From contig JAZDIV010000117.1 in the NCBI GenBank assembly GCA_043804695.1, forward strand, positions 1 through 24,608: 24,608 bases of DNA. The letters run 5' to 3'. A program made the translations under genes and the position numbers. The notes under the pieces are model-generated. The model worked only from the letters and a program-made list of their open reading frames with translations. It ran no database searches and was not told the DNA's origin. Shown here one piece after another: positions 6,058 through 24,608 of the stretch. Every line of letters begins with the position of its first letter. Within the stretch, counting starts at the first letter, position 1. The DNA is from PVC group bacterium (GTDB lineage Bacteria > Auribacterota > Erginobacteria > Erginobacterales > Erginobacteraceae).

Positions 6058-6280
6058 GACCGGCGTTCACTCAGAAGGCTGACAAAAATGACTTCGGGAA
6101 CTGATTTTTATCCGTGGTTATTGTCTGTCTCGGGAAACACAGTTTCTCAAGGCCCTTGCACTAACCGGTAACCTGGTCTATAGTGCGTTTCTTCGCGCTG
6201 TTCCAGGCGCGGCCCTGATGGCAGTCCGGGGATTTTGCCCCAAAAGGCACCAAATGCCAATAAAAAAATAAGGTAAAAAC

Positions 6281-7882: not shown

Positions 7883-8033
7883 TGACAATCAGAAGGATTT
7901 CCAGGGCGCCCTGCCGCCGCCCTTCCGGTCGGCCTTCGGCCTCCCTTCAGGAACGGCAAGAAGGGCGGGAATCGGGACTGCGGGGGAATCGGGTCGTGCC
8001 CGGCATTTCCTGACGGTTTGAAAGAGGAATGAA

Positions 8034-8591
8034 ATGGATCTCGTTTCACTATTTCTGATCTCGATCGGCCTGGCGATGGACGCCTTCGCCGTCTCGATAG
8101 CGAGCGGGTTTAAGATGAAGGTCTTGAATCCGGCTCATGCTCTTATAATCGCGCTTTTTTTCGGAGGCTTCCAGGCGCTGATGCCCGTCATCGGCTGGGC
8201 GGCCGGGGTGCGTTTCCGGGTTATTCTCTCGGGTTTCGACCACTGGGCGGCCTTCGGGCTGCTCGCCGCGATCGGCGTGAAAATGATTTATGAATCATTC
8301 AAATTGGATGATCAGGAACAAACCGACGCTGACTTTAATTTTCCGGTATTGCTTACCCTGTCCCTGGCCACCAGTATCGACGCTTTGGCGGTCGGCTTGA
8401 GCCTGTCATTTTTACGGGTAGCAATCGCTCTTCCGGCGGTAATCATCGGAACGGTAACATTTCTGCTGTCTTTTCTGGGGGTTGTTCTCGGCAATAAAGT
8501 CGGCCATTTTTTCGAAAGAAAGATCGAGATCGCCGGGGGGATCATCCTGATCGGGATCGGAATAAAAATCCTGATCGAGCATTTGATCTGA
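8034..8591 (+). CDS. mntP: Manganese efflux pump MntP family
   Basis: Duplicated motifs LAMDAFAVS and ATSIDALAVG, FGGFQALMP, DHW, about six TM helices. Confidence 0.92.
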   Translation: MDLVSLFLISIGLAMDAFAVSIASGFKMKVLNPAHALIIALFFGGFQALMPVIGWAAGVRFRVILSGFDHWAAFGLLAAIGVKMIYESFKLDDQEQTDADFNFPVLLTLSLATSIDALAVGLSLSFLRVAIALPAVIIGTVTFLLSFLGVVLGNKVGHFFERKIEIAGGIILIGIGIKILIEHLI

Positions 8592-10706: not shown

Positions 10707-11123
10707 GACCCCCGACGCCTGCGTCGGGGGTCTGTTGGTTGATTAAAATATTTTCACCGAGGCGACATGATAAAAAAGCCTTATAACCTCAGCCACTATT
10801 TACTCCATGAATGGTAAAGCCCTCCGGGGGCGTGACCCCTGCCGGCTTGGCCGGCAGGTAAATCAGTTCAGATGCTATAACCCATCCCGCCCCAGAAGAT
10901 CCCCGTGGCTTTATGCCACGGGTGAATGAGTTAACAGCTACCTTCGGACATAGATGTTGCAGCCATTGAACTTTCTCCCCTGCCGCGTAAAGCGGCAGGG
11001 GCCGTTTTTATGTTTGGTATCCTGCGTTAGCTTATAAACTTCCGCTCCGGTGGGATGAACCCACCGGGGGCGGTTGTTGTTTTATTGTCGCTGGTTAGCC
11101 TTTGAACTTCCGCTCCGGTGGGA
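10707..11123. repeat. Cluster of GC-rich hairpins (REP or IS200/IS605-end-like) plus a 19-bp direct repeat
   Basis: Stems at 10707-10732, 10838-10858, 10902-10922, 10977-11001, 11047-11067; AACTTCCGCTCCGGTGGGA at 11037-11055 and 11105-11123. Confidence 0.7.
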
Positions 11124-11180
11124 CACCCTGCAAATCGGCTTTGTGTTCTATCCATATTTTTCGGGGCATCCTGATGTTTA

Positions 11181-12023
11181 TTATCGGGGCCAAGCCCGAT
11201 CATCGGGGTCTCGTCGGGGTTCATCGGTGTTCCCGCCCGTGTCCGGCCGGCGGTCTGACCCCGGCCCGTTCCATCCCTTGCCCTCCGTCTGCCCCAGTTC
11301 CCAGAGCCGGGCGTACTTCTCGGCCACATAGCCGGTGGAAAGAACGGCGCTGATCAGCCCGGGGGCGCCGTCGCGGAACCCCCCTCGCAGGATGTAGTTT
11401 TTCAGGAAATTGAAACCGGGATGAAGAAACATCTTCAGCGCGGTCCCCCGCCGTCCCTCCCGGAAATATTTTCGAGCGGTACCGGCGGCGTAACTGCTTG
11501 ATTTAGCAACGAACTCGTCGATCGACTGGTGCGGGTGGTGGATCAGCCGGGCCTTCAGGAAGCCGTGACTGCCCCGGGGGACCACATCGGAATGAGGCGC
11601 GTCGGCCAGGAACCGATACCTGTCCTTCCGGAAGAGGATCGCCACCGTGTCCGTCTTCCACGCCGCGTGTTTCATCTCCCTCCCGAAGAGATAATTTCTC
11701 CGGTAGACCCGGTAGTTGTCGAACCGGGGGCACTGCAGCTCCCGGAGAATCTCGTCTTGCAGTTCCCCCGGGATGATTTCATCCGAGTCGATGGCCACGA
11801 TCCAGGGATGGGAGGTCCGATCGATCGCCCAGTTCTTCTGATTCCCGGGGAAGGTATACGGGTGTTGGTAGCAGGCATTCGCAAAACGGCGGGCGATCTC
11901 CGCGGTGCCGTCGGTGCTGAAGGAATCCACCGCGACCACCTCATCGGCAAAGCGCAGGCTGCGCAGGCAGGGGCCGATCTCGGTTTCCCGGTTGTAACAG
12001 ACAACGATGGCGCTAACTTTCAA
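11181..12023 (-). CDS. Glycosyltransferase family 2 (WaaE/KdtX-like)
   Basis: SAIVVCYNRE, VVAVDSFSTDGT, QKNWAI, IDSDE, LRGGFRDG..GL; TTG start. Confidence 0.88.
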   Translation of the reverse strand: MKVSAIVVCYNRETEIGPCLRSLRFADEVVAVDSFSTDGTAEIARRFANACYQHPYTFPGNQKNWAIDRTSHPWIVAIDSDEIIPGELQDEILRELQCPRFDNYRVYRRNYLFGREMKHAAWKTDTVAILFRKDRYRFLADAPHSDVVPRGSHGFLKARLIHHPHQSIDEFVAKSSSYAAGTARKYFREGRRGTALKMFLHPGFNFLKNYILRGGFRDGAPGLISAVLSTGYVAEKYARLWELGQTEGKGWNGPGSDRRPDTGGNTDEPRRDPDDRAWPR

Positions 12024-12053
12024 TTTTTACTCCGTAAAAATTGTTGTTGCTTC

Positions 12054-12116
12054 CTGTTTCGGGATGCCGGTACTCTCATTTTGAGGAAAAATGAGAGTAC
12101 CGGCATCCCGAAACAG
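12054..12116. repeat. Perfect 29-bp inverted repeat with 5-nt loop
   Basis: CTGTTTCGGGATGCCGGTACTCTCATTTT-GAGGA-AAAATGAGAGTACCGGCATCCCGAAACAG. Confidence 0.9.
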
Positions 12117-12324
12117 TCGCAAAAACAACCGGATAACAATCTTTTGTTTTCGCTATACGATTCTATGGGCTTGCCTTTTCGGACTGAGTATATGAACCCG
12201 AACTGATGTTCGGATTGGCATCGATCTGCTTGCTAATTGAAAAAATGACATTCACCACATTAGCGCCACAGGCGCCAATGTATACCAGATTTCGTTAAAA
12301 CTCAAGTACTGATAAAATATCCCT

Positions 12325-14016
12325 ATGCGAACGAAGAGAGATCGCGACGCCGGGGGGGGGCGCGAATATAATAATAAGTATATTCCTCCCCTTGAGATAC
12401 GGATTTTACCCAGCGGGGATCCCTGGTCGAGGTGGCTGCCGCGGCTGACGCTTGCTTTCGTGGTTTTCGGGCTCATCGTGCGTCTGGTCCGTTATCTGGT
12501 CTGCTACCCGATCTGGCCGGATGAGGCCTTCCTGGCCGCTAACTTCCTGAACGGGGGGTACGGGGATCTTCTGGGAACGCTCCGGTATCACCAGATATCA
12601 CCCCTCCTTTTCCTCTGGGCGGAGATGTTCACGGTCAGACTCCTGGGGTTTTCCGAGTACACCCTGCGGCTCTTTCCCCTCCTCTGCGGCCTGGGCAGCG
12701 TCCTCGTCTTCTGCCGCCTGGGTCGTCGGCTGTTCCGGGGGGAAGCGCTCCTGCTGGCGATGGCCTTTTTTGCGGCAGCGTACTACCCGATCCGGCACGG
12801 GGCCGAAATCAAGCCCTACGCGACGGACCTGGCGGTCTCTGTGCTTCTGCTGGCGCTCTTTGTCGAATGGTGGCGAAAACCCGGAAAACCGCGGCGGCTC
12901 TGGTTTCTGGCCCTGGCGGTCCCCTTCGCGGTCGGGCTCTCATTTCCGGCCGTCTTTGTCGCCGGCGGAATCAGCATTGCCCTGCTGGCGGCGGCCGCGA
13001 AGACACGGAAGACGAAGCTTCCGGCCCCTTTTATCGCGTACAATCTTCTTCTGCTGGGCGCCTTCCTGCTCACCTACCGGGTCTCGACCGGTCCCCAGTA
13101 CCGCGCCGAGGCCTGGCTGAGCGGCCCCCACCCGGAGACCGGGAGCTTCAACCAGGACTCCGCCTGGGTAAGAACCTTCCCCCCTTTCAGGGAGCCCGCC
13201 CGGCTGCCCGGCTGGCTCCTGGCAACCCATACCGGGATGATGTTCGCCTATCCCAACGGCGGCTTTAACGGCGGCTCCACGCTCACCTTCGTCTTCTTCG
13301 CGGCCGGGGCGGGCATTCTCTATTCCCGGAGAAGAAGAATCGTGCTGCTGGCCTTTCTCGCGCCCTTCCTGCTGACGTTCATCGCCGCCGCTCTTCATAA
13401 ATATCCGTATGGCCACAATGCCCGGTTCAACCTCTACCTGGCCCCGATCATCTGTCTCCTGGCCGGGCTGGGAGGAACGAAACTCATCTCCCTGATCCCG
13501 AAAGTAAAAACCCGGACCCTGATCTTCAAACTTCTTATTCTCCTGATGGTTCTGCTGGGGCTGGGGTCCATCGCGCAGGATCTGCTCCACCCCTATAAAA
13601 AAATCGAGGACCGGCGGAGCCGGGAGTTCGCCCGCTGGTTCTGGACCCATCAAGCAGAGGACGCGGAGCTGGTCTGCCTCAAGACCGATCTGGGATTGGA
13701 CTTCTTCCCCCGCCTCTTCGAATGGGGCCATTCGGCGCGCTATCTCTGCAATCAGCGGATCTACTCACCCGCCCACCGGGAGGGCCGGAGAGGTTTTTCT
13801 CCGGACGCGGTCAGCGGGGAGCACCCCCTCCGGTGCGTCGTCTTCAGCGTTCCGGAATGTTATGAGCCCTACGCCCGGCGCGATGAAAACAGGTGGCAGG
13901 AATGGCTGGCTTCGATGCAGGGCCGTTATCGTCTGACCGGCCATGAAAAATTCGAGGTCAACGCCGGCGTGGAGAGCCACCACGAGTGCTACGAGGTCTA
14001 TGAGTTCATCCCTTGA
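12325..14016 (+). CDS. GT-C fold polytopic membrane glycosyltransferase (PMT/ArnT-like)
   Basis: First loop IWPDEA, SPLLF, SEYTLRLFPLLCG, EIKPYATD, many TM helices and a C-terminal soluble domain; exact start uncertain. Confidence 0.8.
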   Translation: MRTKRDRDAGGGREYNNKYIPPLEIRILPSGDPWSRWLPRLTLAFVVFGLIVRLVRYLVCYPIWPDEAFLAANFLNGGYGDLLGTLRYHQISPLLFLWAEMFTVRLLGFSEYTLRLFPLLCGLGSVLVFCRLGRRLFRGEALLLAMAFFAAAYYPIRHGAEIKPYATDLAVSVLLLALFVEWWRKPGKPRRLWFLALAVPFAVGLSFPAVFVAGGISIALLAAAAKTRKTKLPAPFIAYNLLLLGAFLLTYRVSTGPQYRAEAWLSGPHPETGSFNQDSAWVRTFPPFREPARLPGWLLATHTGMMFAYPNGGFNGGSTLTFVFFAAGAGILYSRRRRIVLLAFLAPFLLTFIAAALHKYPYGHNARFNLYLAPIICLLAGLGGTKLISLIPKVKTRTLIFKLLILLMVLLGLGSIAQDLLHPYKKIEDRRSREFARWFWTHQAEDAELVCLKTDLGLDFFPRLFEWGHSARYLCNQRIYSPAHREGRRGFSPDAVSGEHPLRCVVFSVPECYEPYARRDENRWQEWLASMQGRYRLTGHEKFEVNAGVESHHECYEVYEFIP

Positions 14017-14052
14017 TTTTTCCGGGCGAAGCCCGGAAAAATCAAGGGATGA
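14006..14052. terminator. Perfect 22-bp inverted repeat overlapping the GT-C stop codon
   Basis: TCATCCCTTGATTTTTCCGGGC-GAA-GCCCGGAAAAATCAAGGGATGA. Confidence 0.6.
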
Positions 14053-14138
14053 TGATGACCCGATCACCTCGCTATCTGAATAATTCGGGTTAAACAGTTG
14101 CCTGGGAGGATTGTCTTTCCCGCGGGGGAATTTGCCTC

Positions 14139-14168
14139 TTGACCACTGCCGCCGGCAATCTTTACAAT
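14139..14168 (+). promoter_or_regulatory. Candidate sigma70 promoter for pdp and the downstream cluster
   Basis: TTGACC-18 nt-TACAAT; an additional TATAAT at 14180-14185; AGGAGG RBS follows. Confidence 0.5.
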
Positions 14169-14203
14169 ATGCCCTCTTCTATAATAGTCCCCAAGGAGGC
14201 AGC

Positions 14204-15544
14204 ATGACACCGTACGAAATAATCATGAAGAAAAGGGACGGCAAGGCCCTTTCCCCGGAAGAAATTATTTTTTTCATTGATGAATACACAAAAGGAGATA
14301 TCCCCGACTATCAGATGGCGGCCTGGATGATGGCGGTCTTTATCCGGGGGATGTCCCCGGAGGAATCAGCGGCCCTCACCCGGGCGATGCTCCATTCCGG
14401 GGGCACGATCGACCTCTCCTCGATCGGGAAAACTACCGTTGATAAGCACAGCACCGGCGGGGTCGGCGACAAGGTGAGCCTGGTCCTGGCTCCCCTGGTC
14501 GCGTCCCTGGGGATCCCGGTTCCGATGATGAGCGGGCGCGGGCTGGGCCACACCGGAGGGACACTGGACAAGCTGGAGGCGATCCCCGGCTTCCGGATCA
14601 GTCTCTCCGAGGAAGAGTTCATCCGGCAGGTCAAGGACGTCGGCGTCGCCATCATCGGGCAGACCCGCTCCCTGGCCCCGGCCGACAAGAAGATGTACGC
14701 CCTGCGGGACGTCACCGCCACCGTGGACAGCATCCCCCTGATCGCCGGCTCGATCATGAGCAAAAAGCTGGCCGCCGGTCCGGACGCTTTCGTCTTCGAC
14801 GTAAAAACCGGGCGGGGCGCCTTCATGAGCACGCTTTCGATGGCTGAGGAGATGGCCCGCACCCTGGTCGAGATCGCGGTTCTCTCCGGGCGGCAGGCGA
14901 CCGCGCTGATCACCGACATGAACCAGCCGCTCGGCTATTACGCCGGGAACGCCCTGGAGATAGTGGAGACCATCGCCTGCCTGAAGGGAGAAGGTCCCGG
15001 GGACCTGATGACGGTGGTGATGGAGATCGCCGGCATGATGATTATGCTGGGGGGAAAGGCCCCCACCGTCGAAGAGGGGAAACGGCTGGCCCGGGCGGCC
15101 CTCGAGGCAGGGAAAGGGCTGGCCAAGTTCAAGGAGATGGTGGCCGCCCAGGGCGGAGACACGGCCTATGTCGACAACCCCGGCCTCTTTCCTGAGGCCG
15201 CCGGAAAAATCCCGGTCATCGCCGCCCGGGGCGGCTTCGTCCACGCCATCGACACCCTGGAGATGGGGATGATCTGCGTGGCCCTGGGCGCGGGACGGGA
15301 GAAGGCCGATGATGGGATCGACATGTCCGCGGGGATCATCTTCGCCCGCAAAATCGGGGACCGGGTCGAGAAGGGCGACACCCTCCTGACCCTTTTTACC
15401 AACAAAGAGACCGGCCGGAAAGCGATCGCGGACCGCGCCCTCCAGGCGGTGGAGATCAAAGATTCTCCTTGCCAGCCCCCCCCGATAATCTATAAAGTAG
15501 TCGATAAAGATGGTATTAAAAATTTCCCCCGGGGGAATTTTTAA
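14204..15544 (+). CDS. pdp: Pyrimidine-nucleoside (thymidine) phosphorylase
   Basis: KKRDG, PDYQ, DKHSTGGVGDK, SGRGLGHTGGTLDKLE, RDVTATV, SIMSKK, KTGRGAFM, LGAGR; AGGAGG RBS before ATG 14204. Confidence 0.95.
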   Translation: MTPYEIIMKKRDGKALSPEEIIFFIDEYTKGDIPDYQMAAWMMAVFIRGMSPEESAALTRAMLHSGGTIDLSSIGKTTVDKHSTGGVGDKVSLVLAPLVASLGIPVPMMSGRGLGHTGGTLDKLEAIPGFRISLSEEEFIRQVKDVGVAIIGQTRSLAPADKKMYALRDVTATVDSIPLIAGSIMSKKLAAGPDAFVFDVKTGRGAFMSTLSMAEEMARTLVEIAVLSGRQATALITDMNQPLGYYAGNALEIVETIACLKGEGPGDLMTVVMEIAGMMIMLGGKAPTVEEGKRLARAALEAGKGLAKFKEMVAAQGGDTAYVDNPGLFPEAAGKIPVIAARGGFVHAIDTLEMGMICVALGAGREKADDGIDMSAGIIFARKIGDRVEKGDTLLTLFTNKETGRKAIADRALQAVEIKDSPCQPPPIIYKVVDKDGIKNFPRGNF

Positions 15545-15556
15545 AAGGAGTCCGCC

Positions 15557-15700
15557 ATGGGAAGCGCCAAGACCCTTTTTTACCTGCTGGTGGCCGCCGC
15601 TCTCATCGGCGCGGTGGTTCTGATCTTCAACAAGAATTACCGCCGGGACTACAACCTGGTTTCCAACCGGGATTTTTATTCCAGCCTGGCCCGACATTAA
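15557..15700 (+). CDS. 47-aa single-TM small protein (absent from the ORF track)
   Basis: AAGGAG RBS; MGSAKTLFYLLVAAALIGAVVLIFNKNYRRDYNLVSNRDFYSSLARH*; fills the pdp-comEC gap; GC-rich third positions. Confidence 0.7.
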   Translation: MGSAKTLFYLLVAAALIGAVVLIFNKNYRRDYNLVSNRDFYSSLARH

Positions 15701-15730
15701 TAATCCAGGCGAACGATCCGGAGAGTATTC

Positions 15731-18700
15731 ATGCAAACCTACATCGTATCTTTTGCCGCCGTTCTCATTCTCGGCATTTTCATGCGATTGATTCATCCGG
15801 AATCTTCCGAGCTGTCCACCCCGCCCCTGGTCGCCGCCGGCTTTCTGCTCGCCGGCGCGGTTATCTCCTTCATCTACCGTTCCCGGGTCATGGCTTTTCT
15901 CCTTCTCTGTGCCGCCATCTGCATTTTTATGCTGGCTTTGCCGATCACAACCGGGCTGAACATGTACCTGATGGGGATCTTCGCGGCACTCTTCCTGATT
16001 TCAATCGTTTTCGGATTCATCAAGATCAGGGCGCTTCCGTTCTGGATCCTGAGCGCGCTGGTCCTGGGATACGGCCTGACCTGCCTTCACCTTGACCGGA
16101 CCTCACCCTCCCACGTTATCTACTGGGGGGGCGACGATAACAACACCCAGAGCCTGGTCTACGGGATCATCGTCAAGGAACCGGAAGTCAGGCCGGAGAA
16201 GGGGGACACCCGCCTGACCATCGAGTCTTCCATCGTGGCCAAGATCGACAAAAACCCAAAGGGCCTCAGCATCATCGAACAGGCGATCGGCGAGATGAAC
16301 GGCCTCCAGCGGGAGTGGGAGACCGAGGAAGAAGCTCTCCTCACCCTCCTCCAGGTCCGCGACCGCCTGGCCGACGACCCGGAGGCGAACCCGGAAGAAA
16401 TCATCCGGGAGGAGTTCTCCTGCGGCGACTACATTCCCTCGAAGGAGGATATCGAGACCATCCAGATGTCGGCGGAAGAACTGGGCCCCCCCGGACCCGA
16501 AAAGGGATGGATCACCCGGATCGACACCGGCTGGATCCTGGTCATCGTCTACGATAGAGATCTCAACCGGGACAAGATCTATCCCGCCGTCTCCGACTGG
16601 CGGGCATACGGGGACACGGTCAGGATCATCGCCCCCCTCCAGTCCCCTCCCCCGGCGGAAAATCCCGGCGGCTTCGACTACCGCTCCTACCTGGAGTCGG
16701 TCAACACCTTCGCCACAATGCAGATCAAGGGGAAAGAAAACTGGACCACCAAGCAGCTCGATACCATCGAGATCATCAAGCCGTCTACCGGCAACTTCTT
16801 CATCAACTGGTGCATGGGCATCAAATATGAACTTTTGGCCGTCATCCGCCAGACCACCCCCTTCCCGGAGTCGGGTTTCCTCTCCGGCATCTTCGTCGGC
16901 CTGCGGCAGGGCGTCCCCGACAAGATCGTCAAGGATTCCCAGGCGGCCGGTACCGCCCACGTCTTCGCCGTCTCCGGCCTGCACGTGACCATCATCGCCG
17001 GGCTCCTCCTCCTCATCTTCAACCAGACCCCGATCCCGAAATCCGTCTGGGCGCCGATCGCGGTGCTCTTCCTGCTGATCTTCACGGTCATCACCGGGGC
17101 CCGCCCGTCAACGCTGCGGGCCGCCACCATGAACAGCTTCGTGCTGATCTTCTTCACCTATTTCGGCAAGAACATCCAGAAATCCCTGATCATGTCGATC
17201 TGCTTCGCGGCCATCGTCATCATCTGTTTCCTCCCGGCCGGATACGGCGGTCCCCTGATCCTTCCCTCGGCCTCGTTCCTGATGTCTTTCTCCGCCGTCC
17301 TTTTCCTGGGACTCCTCAGCGGGCCGGTTGAGGACTTCTTCAACTTTAAGCTCAATAACCTCCACAGCCTGGTCACCTTCGCGGCGGTAGCCATCCTGGC
17401 CGGGCTGCTTTTCATGAACCTGGGCAACCCCTGGGGGATACTGAAGGCGAAGCTCTTCTGGGGGTTTTTAATCGCCATCCCGGTCTCTTTCCTGATCCAG
17501 CAGGTGATCCCCTTCCGCCCCCGCTTCAGCAAGATCCCGGGAAGGTGGCTGCGGACCTTCATCGCCGCCCAGGTGGCCATCCAGTGCAGCATCGTTCCGC
17601 TCTCGATGGTGATCTTCCACCGGATGTCGCTGGCCGCCCCCTTCGCCAACTTCATCGCCATCCCCCTGATCGGGATCATCCTCCCGCTCGGGATGCTGGC
17701 CACCCTGATCGGATTCATCCCCCTGATCGGCATGCCGCTCGCCCTCCTGATCACGGCCGCCAACTGGCTGGGGATGCACTTCTTTATCTGGATGGATAAC
17801 TTCTTTGCCCGAACCTTCCCCTACCCCCAGGTGCCCAAACCGGGGCCGATCCCGCTGGTTATCTTCTACCTGGTCGTCTTTTTCTTCATCTACCGGGAAA
17901 AGATCATCCTCAGCCTGAAGATCGCCTTCATCCGGGTGAAGAACTCCCTGCCTGACTCCGCCTGCCGGATCAGGGTTTACGGCGCCCTGGCCGCCCTTCT
18001 GATCGCGATCGCGGCCACGGCGACGGGGTTCATCTCCTCCCGCACTCCCGAGCTCAAGGTGATCTTCCTGTCGATGGGATGGAAGGACGGGATGTGCGCC
18101 CTGATCGAGGCTCCCAACGGAGACACCATTCTCATCGACGGGGGGGCGGAAGGTAGAGATTTCTACAAGAAAAGGTATTCGTACTGGAACCAGGGGCAGC
18201 GGACCCTGGAGGAGGTGCTTCTCTCCGAGAAGGTCGTCGCTTTCGACGCGGTCGTCAATTCCAGCCCTGACGCCCGTTTGCTGGGAGGCCTGAATTACAT
18301 CGTCGGATCGGATGATTATTATATCAAGCGGCTCTACGTCTCCCTCCCTCCCTCCGTCTTCGGGCCGAAGGACATCAACCTGAACCGGTTCGCCATCGCC
18401 CTCGCCTCCGGCTATCAGGGCGATGCCGGGCATTATTACCGGCTGCTGCTTCTGAACCAGTTCAAGCCGGAGGATGCGCTGCATTTCATGACCTTCTTCC
18501 GGAAGATCCCCGATGACGAGATAACCGCCGCCCTCCAGACCCTTCCCCGGGAGCCGAACCCGAAATACGACCCCATGACGATTACCGGAGAGGCGATCCA
18601 GATTCTGAAGGAGAAGGAGGCGGAGGGGCACGAGCAGCTGATCGAGTCCATCATCTCCACCGAGGGGTGGCTCCATCCGGACGAAGATTTCACCCGGGAG

Positions 18701-19573
18701 CAGGCGGAAGTCCTGGCGAAGAAGTGGAAACTTTCGGTTCTTACCCCGGACGAGTATCACGGCTTCGTCTCCAACCTCCCCCAGCCGATCCAGTGGTTCG
18801 TCTACCAGCAGGGCGGGGTCCTCGCGGACATGGATGAGCTGGCCGCCTACCGGATGGAACTCTACGATCTCTTTATCGAGGCCATCGGGTTCAAGAGCGA
18901 AAACCCCGACGACCGGCTGTACCGGGACGACGAGATGTTCCTGCAGTATCACCGGCTGCTCTTCTCGGCCAAGGTGCAGGACATCCCGGTCAGCCCGGCC
19001 AACCAGGGGATCGTCATCATCGAGCCGGAGGAGATCCGGACCGTCGAGACCGCGGAAGGCGAGAAGAAGTCCCTGGTCCTGGAGGCCGCCGTCCTCAACC
19101 CGCCCGTGGATCGGGTTCCCGGAAAGTACGTCAATGAGGTCAACTCGGTAGTCGTTTACCTCCGGTACGGCGATGTCTCCTTCATCTTCCCCAGCCTCCT
19201 TGACAATGAAGGGGCCAACACCCTGGCCCAAAACGTCAAGGACGGCGTCGCGGCCACTATCTACCAGGCCCCGCAGTTCGGGAAGGGCAGCAAATACTTC
19301 GATCCGACCATCCTTCTCCAGCTGGTCAAGCCGGAGGTGGCCGTCTTCCAGTATCCGGGGGGGAGTTTCGGCCGGCCGAGCACGAAGTTTCTGGAGGCAT
19401 GGGCCTTCTGCCAGGCGCAGGGGATCAAGTCCTACAACACGAAAGAGATGGGAGCGATCACCGTCATCACCAACGGGGAGACCTATGACGTCATCACCGC
19501 CCTCGAACAGGCCGGGGAAGAGAGCGGCGGCGAGACCCCGGAAAAATCGATGGAGGTGGGCGGCGGGATGTAA
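15731..19573 (+). CDS. comEC: ComEC/Rec2 DNA uptake channel, enlarged, with degenerate MBL domain
   Basis: OB/DUF4131 motif YGD...NPGGFDYRSYL; competence domain G.AHVFAVSGLHV, PSTLRA, SFLMSF, ANFIAIP; MBL-like C-terminus LIDGG...NSVVVYLRYGDVSF...GAITV. Confidence 0.9.
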   Translation: MQTYIVSFAAVLILGIFMRLIHPESSELSTPPLVAAGFLLAGAVISFIYRSRVMAFLLLCAAICIFMLALPITTGLNMYLMGIFAALFLISIVFGFIKIRALPFWILSALVLGYGLTCLHLDRTSPSHVIYWGGDDNNTQSLVYGIIVKEPEVRPEKGDTRLTIESSIVAKIDKNPKGLSIIEQAIGEMNGLQREWETEEEALLTLLQVRDRLADDPEANPEEIIREEFSCGDYIPSKEDIETIQMSAEELGPPGPEKGWITRIDTGWILVIVYDRDLNRDKIYPAVSDWRAYGDTVRIIAPLQSPPPAENPGGFDYRSYLESVNTFATMQIKGKENWTTKQLDTIEIIKPSTGNFFINWCMGIKYELLAVIRQTTPFPESGFLSGIFVGLRQGVPDKIVKDSQAAGTAHVFAVSGLHVTIIAGLLLLIFNQTPIPKSVWAPIAVLFLLIFTVITGARPSTLRAATMNSFVLIFFTYFGKNIQKSLIMSICFAAIVIICFLPAGYGGPLILPSASFLMSFSAVLFLGLLSGPVEDFFNFKLNNLHSLVTFAAVAILAGLLFMNLGNPWGILKAKLFWGFLIAIPVSFLIQQVIPFRPRFSKIPGRWLRTFIAAQVAIQCSIVPLSMVIFHRMSLAAPFANFIAIPLIGIILPLGMLATLIGFIPLIGMPLALLITAANWLGMHFFIWMDNFFARTFPYPQVPKPGPIPLVIFYLVVFFFIYREKIILSLKIAFIRVKNSLPDSACRIRVYGALAALLIAIAATATGFISSRTPELKVIFLSMGWKDGMCALIEAPNGDTILIDGGAEGRDFYKKRYSYWNQGQRTLEEVLLSEKVVAFDAVVNSSPDARLLGGLNYIVGSDDYYIKRLYVSLPPSVFGPKDINLNRFAIALASGYQGDAGHYYRLLLLNQFKPEDALHFMTFFRKIPDDEITAALQTLPREPNPKYDPMTITGEAIQILKEKEAEGHEQLIESIISTEGWLHPDEDFTREQAEVLAKKWKLSVLTPDEYHGFVSNLPQPIQWFVYQQGGVLADMDELAAYRMELYDLFIEAIGFKSENPDDRLYRDDEMFLQYHRLLFSAKVQDIPVSPANQGIVIIEPEEIRTVETAEGEKKSLVLEAAVLNPPVDRVPGKYVNEVNSVVVYLRYGDVSFIFPSLLDNEGANTLAQNVKDGVAATIYQAPQFGKGSKYFDPTILLQLVKPEVAVFQYPGGSFGRPSTKFLEAWAFCQAQGIKSYNTKEMGAITVITNGETYDVITALEQAGEESGGETPEKSMEVGGGM

Positions 19574-19647
19574 TTTTATTTTATTTTCCTAAAGGAAAAT
19601 AAAATAAAAACAGCAAAATGCCGTCTAAATTGAGAAAAAGAGCTTGC

Positions 19648-19932
19648 ATGATGATGCGGGGTTTAATTCTACCGGTATTGATCATCGCGGCGGCCGGTGG
19701 CCTGGCCGGGGAAATCACGGCCCAGGAAAGGGTCAACGTCAACACCGCCGGCAACCGGGAGCTGCAGAGCCTGCCGGGCATCGGCCCGAAGATCGCCGAT
19801 AAATTCATCGCCGAGCGGCAGGTCAACGGCCCCTACCGCTCGCTGGAGGACCTGCAGCGGCGGGTCATGGGGGTTAACGGGGGCATGATCGAGTCCCTGA
19901 AGAAGCAGGGGCTCTACGCCGGAAACCCGTAA
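19648..19932 (+). CDS. comEA: ComEA-like helix-hairpin-helix DNA-binding protein 1
   Basis: Signal peptide; VNVNTA...LQSLPGIGPKIA..I..R..NGPY.SLEDL; second HhH is V.GVNG; start is one of three ATGs at 19648-19654. Confidence 0.85.
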   Translation: MMMRGLILPVLIIAAAGGLAGEITAQERVNVNTAGNRELQSLPGIGPKIADKFIAERQVNGPYRSLEDLQRRVMGVNGGMIESLKKQGLYAGNP

Positions 19933-20025
19933 AGCAGGCCGGCGATACATATTTATTCAATAACGGGCGTCACAACGACGCCCTGAGTAAGCCCTGACGG
20001 GCAAAACAACAGGAGGAAAAGCAGC

Positions 20026-20343
20026 ATGAGAACAATCATTGCATGTAGTATGATTGCTCTTCTGGCACTGGCGATTTCCGCTCCTCTGCTGGCCGAGGTC
20101 GATGTCAACACCGCGACCGCGTCGCAATTAACGGCCATCAAGGGGATCGGACCCAAGACCGCCGAGAAGATCATCCAGTATCGGGATGAGAACGGACCCT
20201 TCAGCTCCATCAATGACGTGGTCCGCGTCAAGGGAGTCGGGCCGAAGACCCTGGAAAAGATGATCGACTCCGGGTTGGTCTGCAACCCGCCGGCGGGGGC
20301 GGCGGTACCGGCGGCACCGGCTGCACCGGCTACGGAGGAATAA
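20026..20343 (+). CDS. comEA: ComEA-like helix-hairpin-helix DNA-binding protein 2
   Basis: AGGAGG RBS; signal peptide; VDVNTA...IKGIGPKTAEKIIQYR..NGPF.S..D..RVKGVGPKTLEK; Ala/Pro tail. Confidence 0.9.
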   Translation: MRTIIACSMIALLALAISAPLLAEVDVNTATASQLTAIKGIGPKTAEKIIQYRDENGPFSSINDVVRVKGVGPKTLEKMIDSGLVCNPPAGAAVPAAPAAPATEE

Positions 20344-20355
20344 ACAGCGATCGGT

Positions 20356-20397
20356 AATTTCGGGAGCGCGCCGGCGTGCCGGCGCGCTCCTGAAATT
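20356..20397. terminator. Long GC-rich hairpin after comEA-2 (terminator or mRNA stabiliser)
   Basis: AATTTCGGGAGCGCGCCGGC-GT-GCCGGCGCGCTCCTGAAATT. Confidence 0.55.
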
Positions 20398-20426
20398 GCC
20401 GGCATCCTTAAAGGCGGCACCACACC

Positions 20427-21344
20427 GTGAAAACCAAAAGAGCGGACCGTCTGGCCCGTCTGCTGTCGCTTATTTTCGCCGTGCTGGTTGTTTCCCCCGC
20501 GCCCGCTCTGGCCCTGTCAGGAGACAACATCCTCAAGGTGACTTTCCTGAACATCCGTCAGGGTGACTCCCAGGTTATCCAGACCCCGGACGGGAAAGTC
20601 ATCGTCATCGACGGGGGGCAGTCGGCCACCCGTTATTCGCCCTTCGACGCCGGGGCGGAGGTCGTCATCCCCTACCTGGAGAGCCAGGGGGTGAAAAAGA
20701 TCGACGTCGTGGTCGCCACCCACCCCGATTACGATCACACGGGGGGCCTGGTGGCGGTGTTGAACAGCACGTTCCCGATCGGGATGGTGCTCGACTGCGG
20801 CATCGTCCACACGACCGGTACTTATACAAGCTACCTCGAGGCGATCGAGAAGAAGAAGATACCCTTCCGGATCGCCGATGCCGGAGAAATCCTGGACTGG
20901 GGGAAATTCGTCCGGGCCCAGGTGCTCGCCCCCGAGGGGCCGCCCGAAAAACGGGGGCATCTCAACCTGAACAACAACTCGATCGTCATCCGGATGGAAT
21001 ACGGGGACGTCTCCTTCCTCTTCACCGGCGACTGCGAGCACGAGGAAGAAGATATTATTCTCTCCTCTGGAGCCCGGCTTAAAAGCACGATTCTGAAAGC
21101 CGGACATCACGGCTCGAAGACAGCCAGCGGCCAGCTTTTCTACTACCTGTGCGACCCGGAGGTTGTCACCATCTCCGCCGGGAAGAGAAATAAGTTCGAC
21201 CATCCTCACTGGGAATCGATAAAACTGTACCGGGAGACCGGGGCCGAAATTTACCGGACCGATTATCAGGGAAATATCACGGTGCTCACCGATGGAAAGA
21301 CCTATGAGGTGACCACCGGACATGAAGAAGTGGCGGAAGACTAA
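20427..21344 (+). CDS. Exported ComEC/Rec2-type MBL-fold metallo-hydrolase (putative nuclease)
   Basis: Signal peptide ending ALA-L; VTFLNIRQGDS, IDGG, THPDYDHTGG, NNNS, FTGD, GHHGS, HPH, YRTD. Confidence 0.88.
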   Translation: MKTKRADRLARLLSLIFAVLVVSPAPALALSGDNILKVTFLNIRQGDSQVIQTPDGKVIVIDGGQSATRYSPFDAGAEVVIPYLESQGVKKIDVVVATHPDYDHTGGLVAVLNSTFPIGMVLDCGIVHTTGTYTSYLEAIEKKKIPFRIADAGEILDWGKFVRAQVLAPEGPPEKRGHLNLNNNSIVIRMEYGDVSFLFTGDCEHEEEDIILSSGARLKSTILKAGHHGSKTASGQLFYYLCDPEVVTISAGKRNKFDHPHWESIKLYRETGAEIYRTDYQGNITVLTDGKTYEVTTGHEEVAED

Positions 21345-21413
21345 CCTTATTTTTTCTCCGAAAAAATAATCGGAGTAGTAATACCGGCTGCCCCCGGCCG
21401 CAGTGGTTCTTTT

Positions 21414-21452
21414 GACTTTTAGCACTTCAAACTTTAGACACTTCAGAACATT
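21414..21452. repeat. Degenerate ACTTTAGGC-type tandem repeat
   Basis: GCACTTCAAACTTTAGACACTTC (21422-21444) is 21/23 identical to the reverse complement of 23016-23038. Confidence 0.6.
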
Positions 21453-21714
21453 GCCCGAACGAAGTGAGCTAACTTGCTGTTTCGGAATGTCAATAATCGG
21501 AAAGATCAGATTATGGAAATCCCAAAACAGGCGAAAAAGCAACCAGGAAAAAATATTTTGTTTGTTACGCCAAGGGCTTACCGTTGTTTATTGAACAGTT
21601 GCATTCAAACTAATTCTTGGGCAATTATCAGTCTGTTACAAGTTTAAAGGTGTAATTCACTCCAATTCTTTTAAATTAGCGCCGGAGGCGCTAATTTATA
21701 ACGGGGGAGAAAAC

Positions 21715-23010
21715 ATGGATCCTCATATCCTGTTTATTGTCGGAGGCGCGGCCTTCATCCTCTTTTTACTGATCGCCCTCGACCTGACCCGCCTGCTCCG
21801 GAAAAAGGCCGGGGACTGGCAGGAGCTGGCGACGGCGGAGGAAAACGAGGCTGCGCCGCTGATGGAGCCGGGAAATGCCGGGGAGAAAACACCCGGGGAA
21901 ACCGGGGCCGCCCCTCCCGCCGGGGAGCGGGCGCCGGCGACCGGGGAGCTGACCAAGCTGAATATCCCCCGGGGAGCTGAGATCTTCGATCATATCATCA
22001 CCCATAACGACTGGGACGGGATCATCTCGGGGGCGCTCCTCAAGCATTTCTCTCCGTTGGCCAAGGTCGAGGTGACAACCGCCCGGGGCATCCGCTGGGC
22101 GCTCCGATCCCTGGCCAAGAACCCCGACAAGCCGCAGCGTCTCTTCATCACGGACGTGGGGATCACCAGCGAGAACCTGGCCGACATCGAGGATGCCCTG
22201 ATCGATCTCCAGAAGGCCGGTGTTAAAATCTACTGGTACGATCACCACCCCTGGTCCAACCTGAGCATCGACACCGCGGAACGGGATTGCGCCGACCTGG
22301 TCGTCAGCCCGCAATTCCATAACGCGGCCGACATCGTCTTCAAAAGGATCACCGGCGAGGACGATCCCTGGGCCGCTCAATTAATGCGGCTGATCAACAA
22401 TAAGCTCAAGCCGGAAGAAGAAGCATGGGGCAAGAACTGGCGGCTGCTCATTTTGGCCACCCAGAGCGCGCCGTCTCCGGGGGACATCATCGACCTCATC
22501 GTCAAGATCGCCGGCGACCGGCCGCTGTCGGTCGCCGACAAGTTCAAGATCAAGCGAATGGCGGACGAGGAGGTCATTTACCAAAAGTTCGCCGAGGGGA
22601 AGCACCGGGAGGAGATCACCCAGTCGGGGATGAAGTTCCTGGTAGTGGATCTCCGGGTCTTCCGGGAAGAGTATGACGCGGCCGGAAACCTGAAGCGAAA
22701 ATTCGCCCGGCACAACCCCCCCGCTTCCATCGGGTATGACATCGTCAAATATCACAACCCCGATTTCTACATCATGGTCCTGAAGAACGACCGGCTCAGC
22801 ATCCGGGGGGGGCAGGAGAGGAAGTTCAAGGTCGGAGAACTGGCGGGCCTGAAATCAATCAAGGGGAAACCGTGCCGGATCGCCGGCCACAGCTACGCGG
22901 CCGGGGTGTATCTCACCGTCAGCCTGATCAGCAAGCTGAAGTACATTTACAACTGGGCCCTTCCCCGGGAGGTTGAGGACTTCATCGACGAGGTCAAGAC
23001 CCGACTGTAG
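21715..23010 (+). CDS. Membrane-anchored DHH/DHHA1-family phosphoesterase
   Basis: N-terminal TM helix and acidic Pro/Ala/Gly linker; motifs THNDWDG, FITDVG, WYDHH and C-terminal AGHSYAAG; GGGGAG RBS. Confidence 0.8.
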   Translation: MDPHILFIVGGAAFILFLLIALDLTRLLRKKAGDWQELATAEENEAAPLMEPGNAGEKTPGETGAAPPAGERAPATGELTKLNIPRGAEIFDHIITHNDWDGIISGALLKHFSPLAKVEVTTARGIRWALRSLAKNPDKPQRLFITDVGITSENLADIEDALIDLQKAGVKIYWYDHHPWSNLSIDTAERDCADLVVSPQFHNAADIVFKRITGEDDPWAAQLMRLINNKLKPEEEAWGKNWRLLILATQSAPSPGDIIDLIVKIAGDRPLSVADKFKIKRMADEEVIYQKFAEGKHREEITQSGMKFLVVDLRVFREEYDAAGNLKRKFARHNPPASIGYDIVKYHNPDFYIMVLKNDRLSIRGGQERKFKVGELAGLKSIKGKPCRIAGHSYAAGVYLTVSLISKLKYIYNWALPREVEDFIDEVKTRL

Positions 23011-23011
23011 G

Positions 23012-23148
23012 GAAAGAAGTGCCTAAAGTTTAAAGTGCCTAAAGTGCCTAAAGTTAATTTCGCCTCGCACCTGTTATAGCGAGAGTCGCCGGGTGAGGTG
23101 GCAACTTTAGGCACTTTAGGCACTTTAGTACACTTTAGGCACTTTCTT
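23012..23148. repeat. Inverted pair of 9-mer tandem arrays (AAAGTGCCT)n ... (AGGCACTTT)n
   Basis: 25-bp perfect inverted match 23031-23055 / 23103-23127 around a 47-nt spacer. Confidence 0.85.
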
Positions 23149-23163
23149 TTAGGAGCCATATTT

Positions 23164-24342
23164 ATGAAACGAGCAATTATCATCGTACTGGACAGCGTGG
23201 GCATCGGCGAGATGCCGGACGCCGGTGACTTCGGAGACGCCGGGGCGAATACCCTGGGACATATCGCAAAGAGCGTCGACGGCTTCGCGCTGCCGAACAT
23301 GGAGAAGATGGGGATCGGCAACATCGCCCCCCTGCGGGGGATCCCCCCCTCCCCTGCCCCGTCCGGCGCTTTCGGCAAACTGGGCGAACTGTCACAGGGA
23401 AAAGACACCACCGTCGGCCACTGGGAAATTGCCGGGCTGGTCTCGGCCCGGCCCTTCCCGGTCTACCCGGACGGCTTTCCCCCGGACCTGGTCGAGGCGT
23501 TCGAGAAGATGATCGGCCGGAAGACGCTCGGGAACTACGCCGCCTCCGGGACCGAGATCATCAGGGATCTGGGCGAAGAGCACGTAAGAACCGGCCAGCC
23601 GATCATCTACACGTCCGCCGACAGCGTCTTTCAGATCGCCGCCCACGAGGAGGTCATCCCCCTCGATCAGCTCTACCGGATCTGCCGGCAGACCCGTGAA
23701 CTCCTCCAGGGGGAACACGGGGTCGGCCGGGTCATCGCCCGGCCGTTCGTGGGGAAACCAGGAAGCTTCGAACGGACGGCCCACCGCCATGACTTCTCCC
23801 TGGTTCCTCCCGACGACACCCTTCTGGACCTGATCGTCAAAAACGGCGGGAAGACATACGGAGTGGGTAAAATCTACGACATCTTTGCCGGGAAGGGGGT
23901 GAGCGAGACGGTGAGCATCGAGGACAACCGGGACGGAATGGAGAAAACCCTCTCGGCCATGAAGAAGAAGGGATTCAGTCTGATTTTCACCAACCTGGTC
24001 GATTTTGACATGAAGTACGGACACCGCCGCGATGCCGGGGCCTACGCGCTGGCTCTGGAGGATTTTGACCGCCGGATCCCGGAGATCATCAAGGCCTTGC
24101 GCCCGGAGGACATCCTCTTTATCACCGCCGATCACGGCTGCGACCCCACGTTTGCCGCCCATACCGACCACACCCGGGAGTACATCCCCCTGCTGGTGAA
24201 CGGGCCGGCGGTCCGGCCGGGGGTGAACCTGGGCACCCGGAGCAGTTTCGCCGACATCGCCCGGACGATCGCCGAGTATCTGGGACTGCCGGTGATGAAA
24301 TCCGGGAAGAGCTTCCTTCAAGATATTACGGCGGGGAGCTGA
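23164..24342 (+). CDS. deoB: Phosphopentomutase
   Basis: [86 protein letters not shown] before ATG 23164. Confidence 0.96.
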
Positions 24343-24398
24343 TTTACTGCTTCGAAATTTTACGCCAGAGGTTCCGCCTCTGGCGGACAATAAATGTC

Positions 24399-24608
24399 GT
24401 AGCGGCGACCTTCAGGTCGCCACTAAATGGCAGCCTGAAGAGGCTGTCCGGTAAACCCTGAAAGGTCATTGCGAGCCCCGAAGGGGCGAAGCAATCTATT
24501 TTTTCATTCATAACCACCTCTTATCCAAAATGATGAGATTGCTTCGTCGCTGCGCTCCTCGCAATGACCTCTAAAATGCCTAAAATCTGAATTATCGGAC
24601 AGCCTCTT
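24399..24608. mobile_element. Nested miniature elements: REP-like GTAG palindrome, TIR-bounded element, and GTCATTGCGAG element
   Basis: GTAGCGGCGACCTTCAGGTCGCC from 24399; TIR 24438-24454 / 24592-24608 (16/17); inner 13-bp TIR 24463-24475 / 24558-24570. Confidence 0.7.

Follow-up and report, generated by a model that had tools for sequence, protein, structure and literature searches.

Positions 1 to 24,608 of contig JAZDIV010000117.1, from a PVC group bacterium of the Auribacterota order Erginobacterales (assembly GCA_043804695.1), form the whole stretch of DNA analysed here, referred to below as the window. It carries, between pdp and deoB, a block of genes related to those of DNA uptake. 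The core of this block is a long form of the channel protein ComEC, in which the C-terminal metallo-beta-lactamase (MBL) domain has lost nearly all of its catalytic ligands and has been kept under selection, together with a stand-alone MBL protein of 305 amino acids (aa) that bears a putative export signal and has every catalytic motif intact. The genes pdp and deoB encode standard enzymes of deoxynucleoside catabolism. We read the locus as a conserved DNA-scavenging operon set within a pdp...deoB deoxynucleoside-catabolism operon, and give this reading a probability of about 0.5. Gene content and order, the selection on the dead MBL domain of ComEC, and the intact state of the MBL are established directly, and the MBL has a probable export signal as read by eye; from these we infer the mechanism. 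The features of the block are the following.

14201-15544, + strand: pdp, pyrimidine-nucleoside phosphorylase, upstream boundary of the conserved block (NCBIfam TIGR02644, 565 bits, cut-off 409).
15731-19573, + strand: long comEC gene, 1280 aa.
15731-18037, + strand: N-terminal part of the long ComEC (aa 1-769), comprising N-terminal membrane helices, the Competence channel domain and an OB-fold (DUF4131) region that contains an acidic insert.
18038-18343, + strand: N-terminal half of the dead MBL domain (aa 770-871), with motif I LIDGG and a degenerate motif II, NSSPDARL.
18344-18934, + strand: acidic insert of 197 aa (aa 872-1068), modelled as all-helical, which interrupts the MBL fold between motifs II and III.
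18935-19516, + strand: C-terminal half of the dead MBL domain (aa 1069-1262), with FIFPSLLD (motif IV Asp replaced), PQFGKG (motif V HH replaced), FGRPS for FGHP and YNTK for YRTD.
19618-19932, + strand: ComEA-like helix-hairpin-helix (HhH) protein 1, 104 aa, whose N-terminus is a hydrophobic signal or anchor (Pfam HHH_3, 51.6 bits, cut-off 27).
20026-20343, + strand: ComEA-like HhH protein 2, 105 aa, with a signal peptide ending PLLA↓EV (HHH_3, 81.2 bits).
20427-21344, + strand: stand-alone ComEC-type MBL, 305 aa, GTG start, with a Sec-type signal ending APALA↓LS and all catalytic motifs intact.
21715-23010, + strand: putative DHH/DHHA1-like phosphoesterase, 431 aa, consisting of an N-terminal helix, RLLRKK, an acidic Pro-rich linker and the catalytic part.
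23098-24342, + strand: deoB, phosphopentomutase, 414 aa, downstream boundary of the block (NCBIfam NF003766, 541.8 bits, cut-off 256; TIGR01696, 491.1 bits, cut-off 341.2).

A preliminary description of this DNA had taken the ComEC C-terminus for a pseudo-nuclease homologous to the 305-aa neighbour, and this was borne out, the similarity being far above chance and the ligand losses real. BLASTP aligned the two proteins in two collinear matches, E 2e-12 (30% over 127 aa) and E 2e-9 (35% over 86 aa), separated by about 275 aa of ComEC that have no counterpart in the neighbour, and the positions originally given for the degenerate motifs are exact (SSPDARL at 18260-18280, FPSL from 19187, PQFGK from 19271). 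Alignment with the MBL domains of other ComECs (phmmer; structures 30bt_A and 9ic4_A) confirmed the losses, setting STHPDADH against NSSPDARL, HHGS against QF-GKGS, FGHPA against FGRPS, and YRTD against YNTK. The metal ligands H598, D602 and H603 of the Moorella glycerini enzyme correspond to S, R and L in the ComEC of the window. The domain has lost all of its His ligands and, of three Asp ligands, two (the D602 and D700 equivalents); the only ancestral ligands retained are the Asp of motif I (D803) and the middle Asp of motif II (D847, equivalent to D600). Mutants H598A, D602A, H603A and D700A of the M. glycerini enzyme are reported to lose nearly all activity, and D600A to be about fivefold less active (PMC12455585).

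The fold itself is kept. AlphaFold2 modelling of the C-terminal 511 aa from 21 aligned sequences gave an MBL fold with a mean predicted local distance difference test score (pLDDT) of 87.6 and a predicted template modelling score (pTM) of 0.87, and the top Foldseek match of this model was the ComEC beta-lactamase-like domain of M. glycerini (9ic4; E 1.5e-15, TM 0.83 by target). Pfam finds no Lactamase_B domain in the long ComEC, even at E<=1. All 12 orthologues from the order of the window lack the His, second Asp and final His of motif II, the Asp of motif IV, and both His residues of motif V, and all 14 long ComECs examined, namely these 12 and those of genomes G062 and G060, are dead; since hmmalign --trim covered one half of most long ComEC C-domains, their motif II was read from other alignments.

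The C-terminal 533 residues have full-length counterparts within the order at 39-83% identity, in open reading frames (ORFs) of 1243-1312 aa. At least part of this C-terminus was found in all 13 genomes of the order, those of G007 and G008 being fragments, and the other 27 genomes of the phylum sampled for it gave weak, partial MBL matches only. The dead domain is full length in all 12 orthologues, down to 35% identity, and 50 positions are invariant among the 21 aligned C-domain sequences. Identity to the protein of the window is 35-88% in the MBL halves, similar to that of the OB region (40-81%). Ratios of nonsynonymous to synonymous substitution (dN/dS), from four pairs with unsaturated dS, were 0.14-0.25 in the N-terminal half, 0.18-0.28 in the C-terminal half and 0.14-0.51 in the insert. 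Judged from these comparisons, the dead state is old and under selection, and the ComEC MBL domain, first described as a pseudo-nuclease, is a conserved one, with dN/dS values of 0.14-0.28 across its two halves.

The part of the long ComEC that would conduct DNA is its best conserved region, with 64-92% identity and dN/dS values of 0.08-0.22 in the membrane part. The Competence channel domain (PF03772) scores 116.7 bits, in two stretches, against a cut-off of 23, and DUF4131 (PF13567) scores 51.9 bits against 31.6, its best stretch covering only the end of the profile. Both the OB and the membrane regions align with the solved ComEC 30bt_A, and 9vc6_A was also matched. With the ComEC/Rec2 equivalog profile TIGR00361 the long form reaches 97.6 bits, below the cut-off of 190.05; it is about 450 aa longer than canonical ComEC. 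The OB and MBL domains of ComEC are reported to be periplasmic and to form the channel entrance jointly (PMC13539106). The OB-fold region of the window's protein (aa 170-265; 16238-16525) has an extra acidic segment, with a net charge of -14, which is negative in 10 of the 12 orthologues. The OB region and the MBL domain each carry an acidic insert, so that both periplasmic domains would have gained one.

The insert within the MBL domain was modelled alone by AlphaFold2 as all-helical, with a pLDDT of 90.1, and its net charge is -8 to -22 in every one of the 12 orthologues. Searches with this fold found no clear relative, the best Foldseek match against the PDB having E 2.4 and the best VIA-align wide match a Z of 5.5 (lambda GamS, 49 residues), which lies within the noise for helical models. 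At the level of sequence, Pfam gave nothing at E<=1, and the best PDB sequence-profile match had E 0.28. A hidden Markov model (HMM) of the insert matched seven proteins among 1.84 billion representatives; six are long ComECs or fragments of them, and the seventh is a HEAT-repeat protein matched in 11 short stretches, a lead only. The insert is, on the evidence of these searches, restricted to the lineage of the long ComEC. Its acidity in all 12 orthologues argues against DNA binding, so that the scaffold for DNA proposed in the preliminary description for the dead domain found no support, and the same charge speaks for a protein-contact or gating module rather than a DNA-binding surface. On the Foldseek and VIA-align results the insert is not a beta-CASP domain.

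The 305-aa neighbour is an intact ComEC-type MBL, as originally proposed, in which THPDYDH, FTGD, GHHGS and all the other motifs are present. It scores 58.3 bits with Pfam Lactamase_B (PF00753; cut-off 22.7), aligns with positions 441-663 of TIGR00361 ComEC_Rec2 at E 1.3e-40, and matches the solved ComEC 30bt_A at E 1.6e-50. Its export signal, as read by eye, has a basic N-region, a hydrophobic core and the cleavage site ALA↓LS. From its motifs the protein is presumed to be a Mn-dependent DNase. A word-indexed search yielded 3476 relatives at E<=1e-10 among 8000 scored candidates, belonging to many phyla, and many of these proteins are fused to HHH_3 (the ComEA HhH domain) and to OB-fold domains. 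In a survey of the best 80 genome loci of 604 relatives, two were Auribacterota blocks, about 17 were ordinary full-length ComECs, several were split forms, mostly from Saccharibacteria, in which a Competence-only ComEC precedes a separate MBL gene, and the remainder were stand-alone genes. In each of the 15 relatives inspected the motifs are intact, and the N-terminus is a hydrophobic signal, a lipobox or an anchor. Stand-alone MBLs form a large family, and its members are probably exported DNases.

The genome of the window itself has at least six further MBL genes with intact motifs, on contigs C57, C37, C7, C8, C74 and C48. The one on C74 (171-1874, minus strand; 567 aa) is a natural MBL-ComEA fusion, in which Pro/Ser-rich tandem repeats are combined with an intact ComEC-type MBL and, at the C-terminus, a ComEA-type HhH domain. 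On contig C119, two secreted-looking proteins (5389-7980, minus strand, 863 aa; 10888-14274, plus strand, 1128 aa) begin with a distant MBL, which is followed by Pro/Thr linkers and repeats.

The same genome encodes a second, canonical ComEC of 795 aa (C73:4717-7104), which fits the Competence domain with 205 bits, compared with 86.5 for the long form; the long ComEC is therefore an extra paralogue. Among the 61 phylum genomes sampled, those of the window's order have both ComEC forms, and most others have one. The canonical MBL domain is also degenerate in all six genomes of the order for which it was read (e.g. LTRAGIDH, FPSGIG, APRRGSS), and Pfam does not detect Lactamase_B in the canonical ComEC of the window's genome. 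It is intact in all 11 canonical ComECs with a C-domain from outside the order; the ComECs of G030 and G022 gave no C-domain match. As both ComECs are catalytically dead in the order, any strand degradation must come from elsewhere. G062, which lies outside the order, contributes one of those 11 and combines an intact canonical ComEC with a dead long ComEC and an adjacent MBL, and so the dead-plus-stand-alone arrangement need not have followed the loss of the canonical nuclease.

Conservation of the block is evident across the order. The series pdp, long ComEC, one or two ComEA, MBL, DHH-like gene and deoB is found in 10 of the 11 loci fetched from it, and the whole block is present in G062. 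The long ComEC lies between pdp and ComEA in all 11 loci and in G062, and pdp is upstream of it in every fetched locus extending that far. The co-occurrence expected from the preliminary description was found: an intact exported MBL gene lies 0.8-1.6 kb downstream of the dead ComEC in 13 of the 15 loci with readable downstream DNA; the start of the adjacent MBL of G007 is at a contig end. The block has been kept across C-domain identities of 39 to 83%. Two near-identical copies of the long ComEC with its adjacent MBL occur in G001, a genome of the same genus as that of the window (C17:53284-54882 and C26:77069-78667); they may represent two strains rather than a duplication (contamination of the bin, 8%).

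Simpler arrangements occur in sister families of the phylum, here designated f7, f8, f12, f19 and f20 (with G0xx for the sampled genomes). In f8, f12 and f19 all seven fetched loci have pdp-ComEA-MBL-deoB, with neither ComEC nor DHH, although for two of the seven the contig ends or deoB is visible only in a separate scan; the ComEA and MBL genes overlap by 4 bases in six of these seven. In f7 and f20, six genomes have deoB immediately next to pdp. The ComEA-MBL pair is tied to deoxynucleoside catabolism in its own right, and its presence in deo loci without a long ComEC makes the MBL primarily a member of a DNA/nucleoside catabolism module and not a spin-off of this ComEC. Two f8 genomes, G042 and G056, carry between pdp and ComEA-MBL a gene of 824 aa on the opposite strand (L150, 1674-4148, minus strand; L151, 4449-6923, plus strand), which matches no query used.

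The two ComEA-like proteins of the window are short forms, each made of a signal and an HhH domain, and in both HHH_3 (PF12836) exceeds its cut-off. Protein 2 also passes TIGR00426 (70.2 bits, cut-off 53.1), and TIGR01259 comE gives 52.8 bits (E 3.4e-14) for protein 1 and 75.2 for protein 2, below its cut-off of 152.35. The DHH-like protein is conserved throughout, its 12 orthologues being 53-87% identical to that of the window with a mean column identity of 74%. Four motifs, THxDWDG, LFI[TA]D, YWYDHHPW and AGHxYAAG, are invariant or nearly so in these orthologues; we take them to correspond to DHH motifs I-III and to the GGH..AAG-type motif of DHHA1. An Atlas structure search returned archaeal DHH/DHHA1 phosphoesterases at TM 0.53-0.60, a lead only. 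All the orthologues begin with a hydrophobic helix, after which come basic residues and a Pro/acidic linker. The 431-aa protein is probably a DHH/DHHA1 phosphoesterase, of the class of RecJ, NrnA and GdpP, anchored to the inner side of the membrane, with its catalytic part placed in the cytoplasm by the positive-inside rule.

Taken as a DNA-scavenging operon, the locus might work as follows. The two small ComEAs would bind DNA arriving in the periplasm, where the soluble exported MBL would act as the nuclease, cutting the DNA and removing the strand that is not imported. The long ComEC would conduct single-stranded DNA (ssDNA) through its well-conserved channel; its dead MBL domain and OB fold would form the periplasmic entrance of that channel, which would explain their retention, and the acidic helical insert would serve as a lineage-specific protein-contact or gating module. 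In the cytoplasm, the DHH/DHHA1 protein, tethered to the membrane, would break the incoming strand down to mononucleotides. After dephosphorylation, the products of pdp and deoB would pass bases and deoxyribose phosphate into metabolism, along with DeoC-family and microcompartment genes. The ComEA-MBL pair is probably the older, deo-linked module, to which the ComEC paralogue and the DHH gene were added later.

We put forward more tentatively a stronger version, in which the block is a hard-wired machine for eating DNA: a nuclease-less ComEC paralogue would recruit the exported MBL and ComEA through its pseudo-MBL and its acidic, partly HEAT-like insert, and hand the strand to the tethered DHH exonuclease, the whole being coupled to pdp, deoB and DeoC, possibly with a microcompartment. 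If this were true, no earlier uptake system would be known whose gene organisation commits it to the nutritional rather than the genetic use of DNA, with the stages of its assembly still visible, from deoB-pdp through pdp-ComEA-MBL-deoB to the full block.

The origin of the pair was addressed with a maximum-likelihood tree of 58 MBL domains, from which CAN_G030 and CAN_G022 were excluded for lack of the domain; long branches limit this and all the other MBL trees made here. The domains of the long ComECs form a clade (support 100/97). A second clade holds the dead canonical domains (100/100), and a third unites one external sequence with the adjacent MBLs (99/95). The backbone support is 33/0, and the adjacent MBLs fall weakly inside the stand-alone MBLs of many phyla. 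In a quick tree to which seven deo-linked MBLs were added, and from which the three longest rows (CAN_G010, LONG_L053_G060, SA_G000_C48) were removed, the deo-linked MBLs belong to the stand-alone group (support 80), and the long-ComEC domains are split off by a 99* branch. A tree constrained to unite the C-domains of the long ComECs with the adjacent MBLs is worse by 17.7 log-likelihood units (approximately unbiased (AU) test, p 0.119). The phylogeny therefore answers the original proposal in part: the adjacent MBLs branch in a way that mirrors the long ComECs, and a local duplication is neither supported nor rejected. The scenario of duplication followed by subfunctionalisation was not upheld, given this backbone and AU value, the weak placement of the adjacent MBLs among stand-alone ones, and the ComEA-MBL pairs in seven of seven deo loci without a long ComEC. 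Prediction of a complex between the ComEC C-domain (alignment residues 1-495) and the mature MBL (residues 32-305) gave 0.00 in both runs against a mark of 0.32, in runs made without controls, and is taken as evidence neither for nor against a heterodimer.

Several observations weigh against the scavenging operon. G009 has no MBL at the locus, one being present elsewhere in its genome, and the long ComEC of G060, which is more distant, is not part of such a block. Gene order conserved among kin is not independent evidence; moreover, the order in which the operon grew is unrooted, and a full block could just as well have been ancestral and then lost ComEC and DHH. D803, E807, D847, D862 and H1074 are conserved in the two halves of the dead MBL in the 12 orthologues. 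The MBL and DHH genes are 371 bases apart, and DHH-deoB may be a transcript of its own because an AT-rich spacer with a terminator-like hairpin (21387-21404) precedes the DHH gene. The DHH-like protein itself scores 20.7 bits with Pfam DHH, below the cut-off of 28.1, has no NCBIfam match, and gave nothing meaningful in a PDB profile search. No nucleotidase was identified in the block. Among the best 80 genome loci of the 604 relatives, stand-alone MBLs are encoded in archaea and at places that have no ComEC gene within 7 kb, and the family would appear from this distribution to consist of general exported phosphodiesterases and not of dedicated ComEC partners. DprA and a canonical ComEC are present; the organism may therefore also be capable of genetic transformation, in which the long ComEC could take part.

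An ordinary transformation system, in which the long ComEC would be a divergent competence channel, the MBL would degrade the non-transforming strand in trans, like EndA, and pdp and deoB would be only salvage genes or neighbours by descent, is unlikely, although it has the most in its favour among the other explanations. The genome encodes DprA (265 bits), secretins and pilus-type T2SSE ATPases, the ComEA genes adjoin comEC as in classical comE operons, and Streptococcus pneumoniae offers a precedent for a substituted ComEC C-domain with a separate nuclease (PMC8579336, PMC12455585). However, a canonical ComEC is already there and the long form is additional, ComEA-MBL lies between pdp and deoB even at loci without ComEC, and the block has persisted over the whole range of C-domain divergence given above; a tethered DHH phosphoesterase beside the channel would, moreover, be expected to destroy incoming DNA rather than protect it. 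The loci without ComEC also suggest that the partnership might be only apparent, with ComEA and MBL acting as a self-sufficient periplasmic or extracellular DNase whose products enter through ordinary transporters, and with the long ComEC unrelated to the MBL or moving something other than long ssDNA. The seven of seven such loci in three families are consistent with this, as are the six or more other exported MBL paralogues of the genome that lie away from any ComEC, the occurrence of the MBL family in archaea and at many loci without ComEC within 7 kb, and the nucleoside/nucleobase transporters reported for Auribacterota metagenome-assembled genomes (PMC9324843). We consider it improbable, since the long ComEC lies between pdp and ComEA in all 11 loci of the order and in G062, the MBL tree mirrors the ComEC tree, and the channel domain is under the strongest constraint; that neither ComEC of the order has kept its cis nuclease is, in addition, most simply explained if another nuclease serves them.

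Rather closer to the preliminary description is an obligate pseudoenzyme/enzyme heterodimer like CPSF-100/CPSF-73 or IntS9/IntS11, the MBL being a subfunctionalised duplicate of the C-domain of this ComEC. The pair is adjacent, conserved and co-diverging, a common clade survives the AU test, and the conserved insert, part of it weakly HEAT-repeat-like, offers a possible docking surface. Even so, such a dimer has a slender chance of being correct: the free tree groups the adjacent MBLs with stand-alone MBLs of other phyla (backbone 33/0), the quick tree cuts the long-ComEC domains off from all others, ComEA-MBL pairs exist in deo loci that have no long ComEC, and the isolated C-domain of Moorella thermoacetica ComEC is reported to be monomeric (PMC8579336). 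A last possibility is that the dead domain is a relic in decay, itself without function. The loss of all but two ancestral ligands and the blindness of Pfam to the domain might suggest this, but it is very hard to reconcile with dN/dS values of 0.14-0.28 in the MBL halves and 0.14-0.51 in the insert, with the confident fold model, with its full length in every orthologue and with the 50 invariant positions, and we regard it as the most improbable of these explanations.

The scavenging operon can be compared with several known systems. EndA of S. pneumoniae is a membrane nuclease unrelated to the MBL fold. It acts beside a ComEC with a substituted C-domain, which was suggested to be retained as a guide for DNA (PMC8579336, PMC12455585). 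Both systems have an MBL-like C-domain with substituted ligands and an extramembrane protein that degrades the non-imported strand, here a proposed role. The substitutions in the window are radical (H to S, D to R, H to L, D to L, HH to QF), whereas those of S. pneumoniae are conservative; the window's domain also carries a 197-aa insert, and its candidate trans nuclease shares the fold of the lost domain and is encoded in the same gene block, among nucleoside catabolism genes. The canonical ComECs of Bacillus subtilis and Moorella, which have an active Mn-dependent C-terminal nuclease, share with the long form the OB fold, Competence channel and C-terminal MBL in the same order, as well as adjacent ComEA genes. 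By contrast, the long form lacks the H598, D602, H603 and D700 equivalents, is about 450 aa longer, is a second paralogue and falls below the TIGR00361 cut-off. ComEA is reported to modulate the ComEC nuclease in vitro, and coating by ComEA to redirect it, a parallel to the ComEA-MBL gene pairing described here (PMC13539106).

Split ComECs, found in Saccharibacteria and other Patescibacteria (loci L093, L097, L132, L143 and L133), also have the MBL as a separate polypeptide beside the channel gene, with intact motifs and an N-terminal anchor or signal. Their channel protein has no C-domain at all, a simple gene split, whereas the channel protein of the window keeps a dead copy in addition to the separate intact one. 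CPSF-100/CPSF-73 and IntS9/IntS11 are proven pseudoenzyme/enzyme heterodimers of beta-CASP-class MBLs, and they resemble the present case in that a dead MBL paralogue is kept beside an active one in a nucleic-acid machine. They differ in that the insert of the window is not a beta-CASP domain and that contact between its two proteins, like their origin by duplication, is hypothetical; Integrator entries appeared only as weak Foldseek rows for the C-domain model. According to Palchevskiy and Finkel, E. coli homologues of competence genes were reportedly found in 2006 to be used in consuming DNA as a nutrient. The idea of ComEC-type uptake feeding catabolism rather than recombination is common to both cases, but the com homologues of E. 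coli are scattered in its genome, whereas those for uptake in the window sit side by side between pdp and deoB, accompanied by a nuclease and a phosphoesterase of their own.

ComECs whose nuclease domain is dead or missing, a nuclease acting in trans (EndA), comEC genes split in two and the idea of DNA as food are all already known. A literature search, made without subscription journals and supplements, found no dead-MBL ComEC beside an intact stand-alone MBL and no comEC inside a pdp/deoB operon. It is the combination that is new: a retained pseudo-MBL with a lineage-specific insert, an intact exported enzyme of the same fold in the same block, two ComECs that are both dead, nesting in a deo operon, and simpler stages in sister families. 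About half of all ComECs seem by Pfam to lack a nuclease domain (PMC6299819; PMC8579336). Both ComECs of this genome would be scored as domain-less in the same way, yet each keeps a dead copy of the fold. How the second strand is removed when the nuclease domain is absent is an open question in the ComEC literature, and exported ComEC-type MBLs, often fused to ComEA, are available in trans. The insertion of ComEC, ComEA, a nuclease and a phosphoesterase in a deoxynucleoside operon also speaks to the old dispute on whether DNA is taken up for food or for genes, and, given this gene order, a few recombinant proteins would suffice for a direct test of the nutritional hypothesis.

A microcompartment-based degradation of DNA was predicted by Williams et al. 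in 2022 for Ca. Tritonobacter lacicola and Ca. Erginobacter occultus (PMC9324843); ComEC, competence and nucleases have 0 occurrences in the accessible text of that paper. Relatives of the long ComEC and of the 305-aa MBL carry source names that assign them to these two organisms, and the locus offers a mechanism for the predicted degradation in Auribacterota. In the genome of the window, pdp, deoB and the DHH gene are single-copy, and DeoC-family genes and microcompartment shell genes are present elsewhere; its secretins and T2SSE ATPases are envelope machinery that fits the scavenging reading too. The Pdp protein has the Pfam domains Glycos_transf_3, Glycos_trans_3N and PYNP_C.

One further gene belongs to the conserved arrangement.

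15557-15700, + strand: unannotated ORF of 47 aa, with one hydrophobic helix and a Shine-Dalgarno-like AAAGGAG ahead of it, directly 5' of comEC.

It occupies the same place in all 11 loci of the window's order (tblastn, 62-94% identity, E 3e-10 to 1e-25), and its counterpart in G062 is a weak match (30% identity, E 0.47). No Pfam family was matched, and the product may be a small membrane subunit of the ComEC machine.

Hairpins are found in every spacer of the block, at 19573-19612, 19966-19984, 20356-20400 and 21679-21693. The one after comEC is an AT-rich perfect palindrome, those before the second ComEA and before the MBL gene are GC hairpins, and that at 21679-21693 is a GC hairpin with a GGA loop, about 22 bases 5' of the DHH start codon. 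Promoter-like sites (7, as compared with 3.2 in shuffled sequences) and terminator-like sites (16, as compared with 11.6) were not clearly above the shuffles, and Rfam gave 0 matches at the gathering score within 13900-24608. One metatranscriptome run (share 0.06) contained three small contigs, two of them identical to 19960-20347 (388 bases; second ComEA) and 22606-22761 (DHH gene), a weak hint of expression of these two genes; the remainder of the stretch was uncovered, which proves nothing.

The genes farther upstream (10-1674; 4660-6057, minus strand; 6281-7882; 8034-8591) are unrelated to the block. Their products are a Porphyromonas-type peptidyl-arginine deiminase family protein, two B12-binding radical SAM proteins encoded on opposite strands, and a MntP manganese efflux protein, the last being perhaps of interest because ComEC-type MBLs use Mn.

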